Part shown: positions 4,133-7,792 of the stretch, in pieces
Layout: every line of letters starts with the position of its first letter
Position numbering within the stretch: position 1 is the first letter of the stretch
Made by a program: the position numbers and the translations under genes
Notes under the pieces: model-generated
What the model saw: the letters and a program-made list of their open reading frames with translations, nothing else
Database searches by the model: none
Told to the model about the DNA's origin: nothing
IMG/VR virus record: IMGVR_UViG_2531839131_000018
Source of the DNA: a virus
Taxonomy: Duplodnaviria > Heunggongvirae > Uroviricota > Caudoviricetes
DNA: 41,766 bases
Strand: one strand, 5' to 3'

Positions 4133-4324
4133 TTAAAGCCCTGCCGGGACTTCGTTATTATCCATGCGAATAACTTTATCGACCGGATAACAGTTACCGG
4201 GAATTTTCTGTTCCGCTGCGGCAGCCATGCATTCTTTCATTGAGCCGTATACGCCAGTAACCATGTCAACCGGTTCACCGGAAACAAGAAAAACCGTCAG
4301 AACAAGTGCAAATGTGGTATTCAT
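4133..4324 (-). CDS. Small secreted or membrane-anchored protein with N-terminal signal-like segment (63 aa)
   Basis: MNTTFALVLTVFLVSG hydrophobic N-terminus; its ATG overlaps the stop of the upstream gene (ATGA), indicating translational coupling. Confidence 0.5.
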   Translation of the reverse strand: MNTTFALVLTVFLVSGEPVDMVTGVYGSMKECMAAAAEQKIPGNCYPVDKVIRMDNNEVPAGL

Positions 4325-4509
4325 TGCCAGCATCCTTTTTGCATCAGGCGTAAACGGGCCAGCATTGAAACAATGCATATTTGATTTAATAGCTCCCGTT
4401 CGTGTTTTCTCTTATTAATGGCATCTTCAGTAAATACGGGGTTACTGATTTTGACACCAATTTCAAAACAACCTTCAGACGTATTGACGTTTGGTAATAA
4501 CGTTTCCAT
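4321..4509 (-). CDS. Hypothetical small early protein (62 aa), possibly Kil-like
   Basis: METLLPNVNTSEGC...; GAGGA Shine-Dalgarno 7 nt upstream of ATG; stop overlaps start of downstream gene. Confidence 0.5.
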   Translation of the reverse strand: METLLPNVNTSEGCFEIGVKISNPVFTEDAINKRKHERELLNQICIVSMLARLRLMQKGCWQ

Positions 4510-5091
4510 TATCGCGTCCTCAACAATGAATTTTGTGATGCGGTGCCTGGTGCCTCCAGGTGACGTTAACCAGTTAACAATTAACGCCGGATACAGAGAA
4601 CCCACCCATAAGAACCAATACGGAGGTCAACTAGCCTTTTTAACTGTTCCGCGTGCGCTTAGCCGCATTCACCGCATCACAAAATTCACTTTAAAAAGGG
4701 CGGCAGAGCAGTCACGGAGTAAAACTGATACCGCCAAACGTCACCAGAAAATTGATAACAGAGGGCGTTGCAGCGGAGTTGTCACTTAAGTGTATGGTCA
4801 ACCTGACAACCCGGTGCTTCATCGGGAAGACATGAACCCCCCGCCATACTTACCGCCGCGCCATTTCGCGGAGTGCCACAACCGGAAGCGCACGGTCGAC
4901 GAAAATTTAACGACAGGCTATCTATGAACCAGCTACCTCGCCGTGCGCTTTCGCGTTATGGTCTGACTTTTCAGGGAAATATCCTTTCAGTAAACTGTCA
5001 GTTCCGGATGCTCACCCGTGTCCGGCGCACGCACTCCACCTCACCCGTGGAGAACTCCTTAATTACCAACCTTAGCTTCGTTGGTTAGCTA

Positions 5092-5310
5092 TTAACGCGG
5101 GTATGTAATCATTCTGGCAATGCTTAATGCCGCTGCTTTTTCCAGCCTGGTGATATCCTGCTCCAGAGCGGACAGATTTTCAGCCTGCTTAGCCCTGGCT
5201 TCATTGGCCCATTTCAGATCCTGCGCTGCATTAATTTTCTGGCGCATCCACTCATAAAGTTCATCATCGGTATAGTCTGGCGCGATGATGACGGGTTCTC
5301 GTTTCTGCAT
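5092..5310 (-). CDS. Hypothetical small early protein (72 aa)
   Basis: MQKREPVIIAPDYTDDELYEWMRQ...; AAGGAG Shine-Dalgarno immediately upstream of the ATG. The same frame stays open upstream to 5907 but the internal start is better supported. Confidence 0.55.
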   Translation of the reverse strand: MQKREPVIIAPDYTDDELYEWMRQKINAAQDLKWANEARAKQAENLSALEQDITRLEKAAALSIARMITYPR

Positions 5311-5436
5311 GTCGACTCCTTGTGGTTCGTGTTGCCTGCTTTTAACCACATCAGGCGAGGTGGTATCCTGAAAGCCGACCAAAGCTTTACGGATAAATAA
5401 GTTATGTTGCAACCACCAATAAATCCGCTTAAAAAT

Positions 5437-5724
5437 ATGAAAATTGATTACTGGTATAAAGCACTTACAGTTGTTGGTGCTGCGTTGTTTGTCTTTAATG
5501 GAACATCTTTTTTTGACAGATACCCCGTTGTTCCACTGGCTTTTTTGTCCTCCGGTATTTTCTTCACTGGCCTTGGAGAGTGGATCAATCACCCTCTCAG
5601 AGTGAGATTTATTGGTCCCGGAGCCGTTGCCCGGGGGCATAACCGTTCTCCGTGCACACTCGGCATTATCTTCGATATATTGGGTGTCTGCCTGATTGTT
5701 ACAGGAGTCGTCAAATTCTTCTGA
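5437..5724 (+). CDS. Possible small membrane protein (about 95 aa), opposite strand to surrounding early genes; SieB-like superinfection-exclusion role is speculative
   Basis: Two hydrophobic helix-like segments (ALTVVGAALFVF, SSGIFFTGLGEW). No good Shine-Dalgarno; conflicts with an antisense ORF on the minus strand, so very uncertain. Confidence 0.25.
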   Translation: MKIDYWYKALTVVGAALFVFNGTSFFDRYPVVPLAFLSSGIFFTGLGEWINHPLRVRFIGPGAVARGHNRSPCTLGIIFDILGVCLIVTGVVKFF

Positions 5725-6005
5725 AGAGAATCCACACACAGGGCATACAACCGGAATACGGCAAATGATTTCACCCGGCTCGATGTGTGGGTACTCGCCA
5801 TCAATTTTTTGTTGCTCCCGTATGCCCATGTTGACCTCATTTCCCCTTAACGCCGGGGTAGCGGAACAAAAACCTGCTGCATAGTTAAAGTTGAACCCTG
5901 CCGTCATGTTCTTACGCCTCGGGCTGGCTACTTAACCCCTGACCACTGCCTGGTAACTCGAAGTATTGCCCGGCGTTCTGTGGGGCGGGGTGGGTTGGTG
6001 AACAC

Positions 6006-6035
6006 ATCATAAAACACACAAAATGTGTTAGTCAA
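6006..6035 (-). promoter_or_regulatory. Candidate leftward early promoter (PL-like) overlapping palindromic operator-like sites
   Basis: On the minus strand TTGACT (reverse complement of 6030-6035), 18-nt spacer, TATGAT (reverse complement of 6006-6011); palindromes AACACAT..ATGTGTT (6001-6029) and ACAC-A7-GTGT (6035-6049) overlap it. Confidence 0.4.
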
Positions 6036-6097: not shown

Positions 6098-6388
6098 TTA
6101 TTCGCTGTTACTGGGATATTGTTGGCGAGCATGTGCCACGCTTACAATTTCAATGCTTGAGGCAGCTACTTTGTACAGTATTATGTAGTTAGGGTGAGCC
6201 ACTATCTCTCTCAATCCAGAAACCCGTTCGCTTGGCGGATATAGGTACGGATGCTCAGATAGGGGTAGTACAGATGTTTCAATGCGTATTTTTAGTCTGC
6301 GCGCTGCCGGAGGGTTCTCCTTGGCGATGTAAGTTATGATCTGACGCAAATCATCGCGAGCAGACGGTAACCATAATATGGGCAGCAT
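6098..6388 (-). CDS. parE: ParE/RelE-superfamily type II toxin (96 aa)
   Basis: MLPILWLPSARDDLRQIITYIAKENPPAARRLKIRIETSVLPLSEHPYLY..GLREIVAHPNYIILYKV..IEIVSVAHARQ matches the ParE pattern; start overlaps antitoxin stop by 1 nt. Confidence 0.8.
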   Translation of the reverse strand: MLPILWLPSARDDLRQIITYIAKENPPAARRLKIRIETSVLPLSEHPYLYPPSERVSGLREIVAHPNYIILYKVAASSIEIVSVAHARQQYPSNSE

Positions 6389-6579
6389 TACACGCTCTCG
6401 CTTTCCGTGGCAATTTGATTGATGATTTTTTCCATTTTTGCCATTACTTCGTCGTGCGGAATTGCCGGGCGTGGATCTGCCAAACTTGCTGCAACCTTGG
6501 CGCGCAACCATTCGTTATAGCTGTTTTCTTGCTCGATAGTTTCAAATTCTGAGACTATTGGCGAAAGAACCGTGTTCAT
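6388..6579 (-). CDS. Small antitoxin (63 aa), PaaA2-like by size and position
   Basis: 63-aa acidic ORF directly upstream of and overlapping the ParE-like gene; GAGAGG Shine-Dalgarno 6 nt upstream. Resemblance to PaaA2 of the PaaR2-PaaA2-ParE2 module is from memory. Confidence 0.7.
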   Translation of the reverse strand: MNTVLSPIVSEFETIEQENSYNEWLRAKVAASLADPRPAIPHDEVMAKMEKIINQIATESESV

Positions 6580-6605
6580 AATATACCTCTCCCGTATGGT
6601 TGTGA

Positions 6606-7004
6606 TTATGCTCGACGTCCTTTTTGAGCGGCGAGCCATCTTGCAACGGTGCGATCCATTGATTCTTTTTTGTCTTTCATGTCCTTAAGCATTTGTTCTT
6701 GCTCTTCTTCTGGGAACGCCCCAAATGTTTGAAGTAAATCTCTTTGGCGCGGACCTATTTTCATTGAGTCAGGCACTACAACCTGTTCATCCTCGCTCGG
6801 AGGAAGCATGAACCAAAAAATAGGTCGTGCGGTTATTTGTGAAAGTCGATCTAAATTGTCAGGATTTGGACTAACCAAGCCCGCAGCCCATCGCTGCACT
6901 GTTTGTTGCGACACCCCAACTAATTTCCCAAGCTCCGCTTGACTCCAGCCTGTTTCAGACAAGAGTTTCTTTATTCTATATGCAGTGATCTCGAGTGTTT
7001 TCAT
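6606..7004 (-). CDS. HTH (XRE/Cro-CI family) repressor, RacR/PaaR2-like; likely prophage immunity repressor (132 aa)
   Basis: HTH motif SQAELGKLVGVSQQTVQRWAAG; divergent from a Cro-like gene; operator-like palindromes in the 7005-7110 intergenic region; co-oriented with the downstream toxin pair. Confidence 0.75.
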   Translation of the reverse strand: MKTLEITAYRIKKLLSETGWSQAELGKLVGVSQQTVQRWAAGLVSPNPDNLDRLSQITARPIFWFMLPPSEDEQVVVPDSMKIGPRQRDLLQTFGAFPEEEQEQMLKDMKDKKESMDRTVARWLAAQKGRRA

Positions 7005-7040
7005 ACCAACAATTCTACTCAAAAAATGAGTAATACGCGA

Positions 7041-7080
7041 CACACAAAAAACGAGTTTACACATACACGTTTTTTGTGTA
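7041..7080. promoter_or_regulatory. Operator-like inverted repeat in the divergent repressor/cro intergenic region
   Basis: ACACAAAAAACG (7042-7053) and CGTTTTTTGTGT (7068-7079) are near-perfect reverse complements; candidate -35 TTTACA at 7056-7061 lies between them. Confidence 0.45.
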
Positions 7081-7110
7081 ACCTCCTTTCGCATAATGGA
7101 GGTACAAATA

Positions 7111-7383
7111 ATGAATGAACATATTAAGAAAAAGGTTGCGGAAAAATTCTCCCAGCGAGAACTGGCTATGCTGATGAGCACGAAACAACAAAGTGTATCT
7201 CGTTGGTTCAACTCTAAGTTCCCTGCATCAAGGGTGATTCATTTGTGTCAATTGATGCAGTGGGAGGTTGTTCCCCATGAGCTCCGACCAGACATATACC
7301 CTAACCCAACCGACGGTTTACCTGTTGGATTCAAGGTTAACACATCAAATGCACCGGAGTTGATTCATGAAAATCAAGCATGA
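7111..7383 (+). CDS. Cro-like / YdaS-like HTH protein (90 aa)
   Basis: GGAGGT Shine-Dalgarno 6 nt upstream; HTH-like segment SQRELAMLMSTKQQSVSRWF; divergent from the repressor. Confidence 0.65.
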   Translation: MNEHIKKKVAEKFSQRELAMLMSTKQQSVSRWFNSKFPASRVIHLCQLMQWEVVPHELRPDIYPNPTDGLPVGFKVNTSNAPELIHENQA

Positions 7384-7792
7384 ACACATCCGCATGGCGA
7401 TGAATGCCTGGGCGCATCCGGACGGCGAGAAAGTACCGGCTGCAGAGATTGCCAAAGCGTATTTTGAGCTGGGAATGACGTTTCCTGAACTGTACGGCTA
7501 CAGCCATCCGGAAGCCCTGGCTCGCAATACTCAGAAAATATTCCGCTGGGTGGAGAAAGACACCCCTGATGCTGTTGAAAAAATTCAGGCGTTGTTACCA
7601 GCGATCGAAAAAGCAATGCCACCTCTGCTGGTGGCCAGAATGCGCAGCCACAGTTCAGCTTATTTTCGGGAGCTGGTGGAGACGCGGGAGCGACTGGTGA
7701 GAGACGCTGATGATTTTGTCGCAGTGGCGATCGCTGGTTTCAACCAGATGAATCGTGGTGGTCCGGCAGGTAATGCAGTGGCTGTACATTAA
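7367..7792 (+). CDS. YdaT-like protein (141 aa; CII-like or toxin-like family, function uncertain)
   Basis: Position directly after the cro-like gene with overlapping start; length and composition fit YdaT-like proteins of Rac-type prophages (from memory). Confidence 0.55.
   Translation: MKIKHEHIRMAMNAWAHPDGEKVPAAEIAKAYFELGMTFPELYGYSHPEALARNTQKIFRWVEKDTPDAVEKIQALLPAIEKAMPPLLVARMRSHSSAYFRELVETRERLVRDADDFVAVAIAGFNQMNRGGPAGNAVAVH

Follow-up and report, generated by a model that had tools for sequence, protein, structure and literature searches.

The dicBF operon of the Qin prophage in Escherichia coli K-12 (ydfA-ydfB-ydfC-dicF-dicB-ydfD) is the source of the small RNA DicF, which is processed out of the polycistronic transcript of the dicBp promoter (Ragunathan et al. 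2023; PMC10448788). Ribonuclease (RNase) III gives rise to a 190-nucleotide (nt) species, RNase E to the 53-nt DicF, and no internal promoter was found experimentally in the K-12 region (PMC10448788). The sequence analysed here, a 41,766-nt stretch of a Caudoviricetes virus (IMG/VR record IMGVR_UViG_2531839131_000018; the whole stretch is referred to as the window), carries a closely similar operon, with the same gene order, the same spacing, and near-identical sequence from ydfC to ydfD, and with a pL-like promoter that likewise adjoins a CI/Cro-type immunity region. Unlike Qin, the window has an inverted cassette in place of ydfA and ydfB, and its immunity region is of the paaR2-paaA2-parE2 / ydaS-ydaT type rather than dicA/dicC. 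The cassette consists of a small membrane-protein gene on the plus strand and, opposite it, a long open reading frame (ORF) on the minus strand that starts at 5829. Our best reading, to which we assign a probability of roughly 55%, is that a DicF locus is preceded here by an inverted, conserved gene, with the minus-strand passage through that gene kept free of stop codons so that ribosomes can cross it on the pL transcript.

Antisense overlapping genes have been reported in E. coli O157:H7, ano being one example, by the Neuhaus/Scherer group (PMC5960689, PMC9927249, bioRxiv 10.1101/2020.11.18.388249). The pair in the window resembles these in that an established gene of an E. coli (pro)phage is spanned by a long ORF on the opposite strand, with both strands being candidates for translation. 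The O157:H7 cases rest mainly on RNA sequencing and ribosome profiling of embedded ORFs, usually in other frames, whereas the present pair is known from comparative evidence alone (stop avoidance and a conserved, non-overlapping head), and its overlapping ORF is longer than the gene that it covers. The genes ydfB, ydfC, and dicB are not mentioned in bioRxiv 10.1101/2020.11.18.388249. Selection on long antisense ORFs in bacteria is disputed, and this pair is an unusual, testable case in a tractable E. coli prophage operon, given that many diverged lineages avoid stops, that a composition-matched control can be applied, and that DicF and DicB filamentation offer easy readouts. If true, it would be a rare case in which selection for an open antisense frame spanning an entire gene is evident from comparative genomics alone, with either a functional second protein or the need of the operon for ribosomes to cross an inverted gene as its cause; the latter would amount to a constraint on the backward insertion of genes into phage operons.

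A small membrane protein encoded beside the repressor, within the early-left transcription unit, is a feature that the window has in common with rexAB/sieB of lambda and sieB of P22. The lambda sieB gene lies in pL orientation, whereas the plus-strand gene described here is inverted relative to pL, and its product shows neither sequence nor fold similarity to SieB or RexB.

An inverted membrane-protein gene

The plus-strand ORF is almost certainly a real gene, to judge from its conservation. By tblastn, its product matched HannyBb at 88.7% identity and both mEp390 and gp33 of the Burkholderia phage Bcep176 at 36%. A large protein search returned 56 homologues, including proteins from Yersinia, Herminiimonas, and Reinekea, and the addition of genome, viral, and metagenome collections brought the family to 73 distinct proteins in 47 clusters, with further homologues in Pantoea, Roseateles, Arcobacter, and the phages mEp390 and Bcep176, a spread across the Proteobacteria. 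Residues W17, Y18, K19, G56, G58, E59, W60, N62, H63, and P64 are invariant (11–13 invariant columns across alignments) and fall in the motifs DYWYK and GLGEWINHP, the core of the latter (GEWINHP) being invariant. Between the window and HannyBb, substitutions are distributed 9/8/27 over the three plus-strand codon positions, with 24 synonymous and 12 non-synonymous changes, indicating clear purifying selection. The AlphaFold2 model (predicted local distance difference test score of 87) comprises three long helices and a beta-hairpin at residues 65–79, and the protein fits the profile of an unnamed family of ~100–110 amino acids (aa) with the same invariant motif residues, three helices, and hairpin.

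An earlier reading of the window made from its letters (hereafter the sequence-only reading) had correctly noted a membrane-like plus-strand ORF ending at 5724, with a start at 5437. Given that N7 and L9, which lie before the second Met, are nearly invariant, we instead place the start most likely at 5404, where the Shine-Dalgarno sequence is weak. The same reading had suggested that the ORF might be SieB-like. However, no significant match to the protein was found in Pfam, NCBIfam, PHROG, or PADLOC (E ≤ 0.01), SieB included, and a Foldseek search of the model against the PDB and BFVD returned nothing significant (best E = 1.4 and 0.024, respectively); homology to SieB is therefore unsupported.

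In enterobacterial prophages, the plus gene always adjoins the repressor gene and is inverted with respect to the adjacent early operon. Given this position beside the immunity region, the gene is probably active in the lysogen, when pL is repressed; an exclusion role for the protein in the lysogen is a guess from gene position. In the phage mEp390 (L004, 2456-2911), the family member is inverted in the early-right operon, directly after a cro-like gene, and the deposited annotation calls the antisense 151-aa ORF (mEp390_039), which it describes as similar to Bcep176 gp33, a product of the other strand. We also noted three copies of the gene family on the chromosome of Arcobacter sp. Pygsuia-1 (L025-L027; each 37% identity, E = 1e-16), which suggests carriage on a repeated mobile element.

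A stop-free frame opposite the gene

From 5092 to 5907 (271 aa), the minus frame contains no stop, as the sequence-only reading had stated, and the ATG at 5829 does open a product beginning MGIREQQ and containing CPVC. The ORF is composite, being made up of the start at 5829 and a head with a CPxCG motif, a stretch antisense to the plus gene, and, joined in frame, the known gene ydfC, which accounts for its last 72 codons (5310-5092). Both ORFs of the pair are intact, each with a start signal. In relatives, the minus ORF stops 6–13 codons past the start of the plus gene; in the window type (the window and L041-L043), the relatives' stop just before ydfC is a Leu codon, and the ORF therefore continues through ydfC in the same frame, for a total of 245 aa counted from 5829. 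The minus ORF of the HannyBb type has the first 34 residues of YdfB joined to it upstream, mEp390 and Pantoea carry a different conserved head on a like passage, and L169 has another head again.

The conserved head peptide covers 21 minus-strand codons just outside the overlap (5725-5787). Across five lineages, its substitutions fall mostly on minus-strand third positions (7/5/15, 9/8/13, and 4/5/11), the changes beneath its invariant residues are synonymous, and the start of the minus ORF (GAGG and ATG at 5829) matches that of the first operon gene of phage Tritos. This pattern makes it quite probable that the head is coding. A CPxCG head in the same register, directly before the overlap, is also found in Roseateles (L015) and in the metagenome lineages L165, L167, L168, and L171; in all, seven lineages among enterobacterial prophages, Roseateles, and environmental contigs combine the head with the open frame. 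The head is not a two-knuckle zinc ribbon, having one conserved CPxCG with an upstream position that is either C or F. The lineage alignments contained no conserved second Cys pair in either head or tail, and a Pfam scan of the minus ORFs gave only sub-threshold zinc-knuckle matches. Homologues of the minus ORF are restricted to close relatives, a tblastn search with its translation returning HannyBb only (63%).

The plus gene and the minus ORF share a codon register; antisense stops can therefore arise solely from the plus codons TTA, CTA, and TCA, and the plus gene contains none of the three. When its third-codon bases were permuted among synonymous codon boxes (an own-composition shuffle), 4.9 antisense stops were expected against none observed (P = 0.0002). 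Across 18 open lineages, the same shuffle gave P values of 0.0002–0.12, and six control homologues with stops matched the shuffle expectation. No TTA, CTA, or TCA codon occurs in any of the enterobacterial lineages examined (the window, the HannyBb type, L013, L008-10, the Yersinia lineages L011-12, mEp390, and Pantoea). These plus genes are AT-rich (GC content 0.40–0.48), and A is the last base of 23% of their remaining four-fold codons; in neighbouring early genes, TTA, CTA, and TCA make up 4.7–5.5% of codons, with at least one present in 43 of 44 neighbours. Under three null models, the probability of finding no stop was 0.001–0.17 per lineage, and the product over five lineages, 2e-6 to 9e-14, assumes that the lineages are independent.

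Openness is also associated with the head. Among distinct plus proteins, 21 with the head have an open antisense frame and 3 a closed one, compared to 13 open and 39 closed where the head is absent, and lineages bearing CPxCG are stop-free except for three recent variants. The head-less sister lineages L170 and L173, of similar GC content at third codon positions (GC3), have 2–3 antisense stops, homologues in co-directional chromosomal contexts carry antisense stops, and homologues of the same GC3 elsewhere have 3–12. By these measures, the openness of the minus frame is beyond chance, and we think it probable that selection keeps it open. The amino acids of the passage are unconstrained: its substitutions follow the plus frame only, with 3 synonymous and 33 non-synonymous codon changes when counted in the minus frame (window versus HannyBb), and synonymous sites are saturated between lineages.

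Frames in the −1 register opposite a real gene tend to be stop-poor, and the minus ORF could be an ordinary shadow of this kind, with only the plus gene and ydfC being real. The pair has the shared register that is classic for shadow frames, the minus translation of the overlap mirrors the plus motifs (GEWINHP becomes V-I-D-P-L), and it is conserved among close relatives only. High-GC homologues are open, as composition predicts, and gene callers favour the longer ORF; such calls underlie phrog_35040 and the 1798-member cluster P0062. Furthermore, 28% of the 106-codon windows in the long ORFs of this phage have no same-register antisense stop, an empirical null that is our most conservative bound. 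However, this null is ill-suited to a TTG/CTT-rich gene, as it derives from CTG-rich structural genes; the plus gene is heavy in TTG and CTT yet has no TTA or CTA, and the shuffles give P = 0.0002–0.06 in most open lineages. In a shadow ORF, composition explains the openness and independent conservation is lacking, whereas here the absence of stops goes beyond what a matched composition predicts and is correlated with a head peptide and a start site that are conserved independently. Given that the head beyond the overlap evolves as minus-strand coding sequence, that openness tracks the presence of the head, and that homologues of equal GC3 elsewhere do carry stops, a shadow ORF is unlikely, being disfavoured by the coding pattern of the head, the association of head and open frame, and the own-composition shuffle. 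A comparison of neighbouring long-ORF orientation with antisense openness at 50 loci was too noisy, because shadow ORFs were picked, and was not used.

The contention of the sequence-only reading that only one of the two ORFs is likely to be real is not supported, in that the plus ORF is a conserved gene and the minus ORF holds both ydfC and a minus-coding head, joined by a passage that is stop-free beyond chance. The two ORFs do not appear to be mutually exclusive in any simple sense, and both may be used. We lean towards the membrane-protein gene and the CPxCG-headed antisense ORF being a maintained overlapping pair, from enterobacterial prophages to environmental Proteobacteria.

As to why the frame would be kept open, the firing of pL would produce a transcript that runs antisense through the plus gene. 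Translation from 5829 would make the CPxCG head, traverse the antisense stretch, and, in this allele, enter ydfC in frame, and such uninterrupted translation would keep the pL transcript occupied by ribosomes over the length of the inverted gene. Otherwise, a stretch of more than 300 nt would lack translation, and Rho-dependent polarity or pairing with the convergent messenger RNA (mRNA) could act on it; either would lower the expression of ydfC, dicF, dicB, and the recombination genes. Selection would then remove antisense stops but not other changes. The unconstrained passage, its free fusion to YdfB or YdfC, the varied heads, and the open antisense frame of a second cassette described below (ECs_2282) are consistent with translation mattering and sequence not. 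What the data show directly is the identity of dicF, dicB, ydfC, and ydfD, a real plus gene, a head that evolves as minus-strand coding sequence, and the avoidance of stops; the timing of expression of each strand and the reason for the open frame are what we infer, and the polarity rationale in particular is tentative and somewhat doubtful.

Several points weigh against ribosome crossing as the explanation. The antisense RNA is not obviously C-rich, the conserved leader may contain a protein-independent antiterminator, and a consensus scan found no promoter for the plus gene. The natural E. coli variants L045, L046, and L122 have one antisense stop with the plus gene intact, and an open frame is therefore not strictly required; the stop in these recent variants results from plus A85S (minus TGC to TGA). 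The head of L167 contains a nonsense codon and that of L172 survives as a frameshifted remnant, and, as the lineages are not fully independent, the combined P values are rough. Finally, the conservation of the head peptide argues for a protein function that ribosome passage alone leaves unexplained.

A protein function is at the centre of another alternative, a true antiparallel gene pair in which the CPxCG head and a hydrophilic tail of ~110 aa are functional and the presence or length of the tail is needed; the two proteins, or the fully complementary mRNAs, would work together as a switch, for example, or in the manner of a toxin and its antidote. The co-occurrence of head and open frame in seven lineages, the invariable stop 6–13 codons past the plus gene start, stop avoidance that holds under composition control, and the stops in the head-less sisters L170 and L173 would all fit this alternative. 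The tail, however, has no amino-acid constraint of its own (the 9/8/27 distribution and the 3 synonymous versus 33 non-synonymous minus-frame changes given above), with the saturation of synonymous sites between lineages a further point against it. Moreover, the protein has a single CxxC knuckle with no second Cys pair, its head matches no family, it fuses freely to YdfB or YdfC, and stop-bearing variants persist. We consider such a gene pair fairly unlikely, and prefer a stop-free passage kept for ribosomes to cross.

DicF and the early-left operon

The region covers the end nearest the promoter of an operon that is transcribed leftward on the minus strand, namely the early-left (pL/dicBp) operon of a Qin/dicBF-type lambdoid prophage (Table 1). 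The pL-like promoter is followed by the leader, the ORF from 5829, ydfC, a 342-nt spacer, dicF, dicB, ydfD, and an exonuclease gene. The Qin-type order ydfC-dicF-dicB-ydfD lies downstream of a repressor-controlled pL-like promoter, with the inverted cassette where ydfA and ydfB would be the promoter-proximal genes. The promoter-like site, which would drive the entire minus-strand operon, is flanked by immunity/toxin-antitoxin genes of the paaR2-paaA2-parE2 type and by the conserved leader. We looked at the leader (5826-6000, minus strand) as a possible structured nut/put-like RNA and rejected this for now, as its fold is no stronger than that of shuffled sequences (z = 0.08) and no Rfam match was found at E ≤ 1. 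The ydfC gene has its own ribosome-binding site (AAGGAG), and ydfD overlaps the dicB stop by 4 nt, as it does in K-12.

Table 1. Features of the early-left region of the window, in order of position.
Feature	Coordinates	Strand	Basis and remarks
ydfD (63 aa; DUF1482, lysis protein)	4133..4324	-	Pfam DUF1482, E = 7.7e-23; K-12-like layout
dicB (62 aa), cell-division inhibitor	4321..4509	-	Pfam DicB, 131 bits; NCBIfam, 134 bits
dicF-dicB spacer	4510..4697	-	K-12-like save for a 14-nt insertion in the window
dicF small RNA	4698..4749	-	Rfam RF00039, 76.7 bits versus gathering score 48, E = 2.4e-15
Long stem in the ydfC-dicF spacer	4874..4962	-	Inverted repeat 4883-4895/4941-4953; fold -37.4 kcal/mol, z = -2.3
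ydfC (72 aa)	5092..5310	-	phrog_1744, E = 1.9e-39; 71/72 residues identical to K-12 YdfC
Stop-free antisense passage	5311..5724	-	Codons in register with those of the plus gene over 5404-5724
Small membrane-protein gene (106 aa)	5404..5724	+	Inverted relative to the operon; three helices and a beta-hairpin
Minus-ORF start (GAGG-N5-ATG) and 35-codon head	5725..5829	-	Conserved peptide PGE.I(C/F).IP..CP.CGF
Conserved untranslated early-left leader	5830..5998	-	95–98% identity with phages Tritos, 813R8, and 606R7
pL/dicBp-like sigma-70 promoter (TTGACT-18-TATGAT)	6006..6035	-	Consensus scan, 10/12 matches

The sequence-only reading had drawn attention to 4606-5091 as a stretch with no credible ORF, and this was borne out, as it contains short or antisense ORFs only (4418-4789, 4790-4927, and 4873-5088 on the plus strand and 4712-4822 on the minus strand). 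One of these, the 123-aa plus-strand ORF at 4418-4789, is antisense to dicB and dicF and was rejected as unsupported. The stretch is the ydfC-dicB intergenic region, and it is non-coding because it is the precursor of a small RNA, which we identify as DicF with near certainty from its sequence. The Rfam match is full-length (52 model positions), the sequence is identical to K-12 dicF (53 nt there), and dicF sits between the end of ydfC (5092) and the start of dicB (4509) on the same strand, with a terminator-like stem (GGCGG...CCGCC followed by UUUUU) at its 3′ end. The K-12 Qin layout is alike (ydfC, 340 nt, dicF, 174 nt, dicB, ydfD), the ydfC-dicF spacer is near base-for-base that of K-12, and this block was found by megablast in 4754 of 5426 complete E. 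coli genomes.

The long stem in the ydfC-dicF spacer is located where a 190-nt RNA ending at 4698 would start (~4887), and from the published length, we infer it to be where RNase III would cut to form the 5′ end of the DicF precursor. As in K-12, DicF would be processed out of a polycistronic transcript, RNase III cutting the stem to yield the 190-nt species and RNase E trimming it to the 53-nt DicF, whose end at 4698 is the terminator hairpin. Of the two contents proposed for the gap, a regulatory RNA or early promoters, the first was correct, the RNA being DicF with its processing spacer; the second was not, a consensus scan of the minus strand finding no promoter-like site in the gap and the promoter-like site of the operon lying at 6035..6006. 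The 6-bp hairpin placed near 5055-5080 is present, as ACCAAC/GTTGGT at 5065-5070/5080-5085, directly 3′ of the ydfC stop on the minus strand. It lacks a U run and shows no clear compensatory change versus K-12, and we regard it as unremarkable. The gap is the already known DicF locus, neither a new RNA nor a promoter region, and this part is textbook, its value being correct annotation only. In the dicF-dicB spacer, we also noted a sub-threshold Rfam match to the Salmonella small RNA STnc100 (4532-4686, minus strand; 35.3 bits versus 47, E = 1.5e-5).

Taken as a whole, the sequence-only account, with early promoters or an unknown RNA in the gap and a SieB-like plus ORF that excludes the minus ORF, is very unlikely. 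A regulatory RNA does sit in the gap, but it is the known DicF, and promoters there are opposed both by the lack of an internal promoter in K-12 and by the scan of the minus strand. A small membrane protein beside the immunity region, inverted to the lytic operon, is typical of lysogen-expressed exclusion genes, yet the protein matched no SieB or defence family and no fold, and the evidence given above is that the minus ORF is not excluded.

Beyond the operon, the immunity region is of the paaR2-paaA2-parE2 / ydaS-ydaT type (6101-7211, minus strand; 7096-7789, plus strand). An HTH_3 repressor-like gene (6609-7211) precedes, on the same strand, genes for a PaaA2 antitoxin (Pfam, E = 3e-22) and for a toxin of the ParE kind (E = 8e-17), and genes of the YdaS and YdaT families face these three. 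The arrangement resembles a bistable toxin-antitoxin and immunity module that has reportedly been described for a cryptic prophage of O157:H7 (PMC8630535). The prophage appears otherwise complete (41.7-kb window, with an exonuclease and transfer RNAs (tRNAs)). Elsewhere in it, a strong match to the sok antitoxin RNA (Rfam RF01794; 11674-11849, plus strand; 120 bits versus a gathering score of 59) points to a type I toxin-antitoxin locus of the hok/sok kind, and two tRNA genes were found at 17042-17114 and 17215-17288 on the plus strand (Rfam tRNA model, 72.5 and 70.1 bits).

A variable slot between the leader and ydfC

Alignment of the window with 813R8 and Tritos showed a conserved leader (5830-5998), a variable cassette, and a conserved ydfC-dicF-dicB block. 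The slot is occupied by ydfA and ydfB in Tritos and K-12, by a plus-strand 66-aa zinc ribbon of the ECs_2282 family in most E. coli prophages, and in the window by a different cassette, the inverted plus-strand membrane-protein gene with the minus-strand CPxCG head. HannyBb-type relatives retain ydfA and a truncated ydfB. The ECs_2282 cassette resembles that of the window in occupying the same slot between leader and ydfC, in its inverted plus-strand orientation, and in having an open same-register minus ORF, although its protein is unrelated, with two CxxC knuckles. This minus ORF (119 codons) covers the gene wholly in 19 of 19 variants. We considered the ECs_2282 cassette as a second test of selection and set it aside, as the variants are 92–100% identical and their diversity is too low to inform.

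The flanking sequence TTAACCAC...TGGTATCCT upstream of the cassette is common to the window and the ECs_2282 type. Just upstream of the plus-strand cassette, at 5333-5376 (plus strand), lies an element of ~45 nt (TGCCTGCTTTTAACCAC.TCAGGCGAGGTGGTATCCT) that is present in the window, HannyBb, and the ECs_2282-bearing 813R8 and absent in Tritos, which has no inverted gene. By eye, this element contains a possible -35 (TTAACC) and extended -10 (TGGTATCCT), separated by 16 nt at ~5348-5376 and a candidate promoter for the plus gene, which the consensus scan did not call.

The HannyBb-type cassette, at a coverage of at least 80%, was found in 797 of 5426 complete E. coli genomes. About 15% of complete E. 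coli genomes carry the overlapping pair, mostly unannotated. Most of the best-matching RefSeq rows have no annotated feature beneath the cassette match. In one RefSeq example, the cassette is unannotated and ydfB is a truncated pseudogene, and in another a 191-aa minus ORF is called. In a large protein collection, the minus-ORF cluster has 1798 members and the plus-gene clusters ~280, and PHROGs has a family built on the minus ORF (phrog_35040) and none for the plus protein. Phage annotators and Prodigal call the long minus ORF, and annotations mostly lack the conserved plus gene.

In HannyBb-type prophages, ydfC and ~90 nt of the spacer are absent, but dicF and the region of the RNase III stem are kept. 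The HannyBb annotation (L003, 2090-2500, the counterpart of 4500-5100 in the window) places three small, probably spurious ORFs here (CDS0035-0037), one of which lies over dicF.

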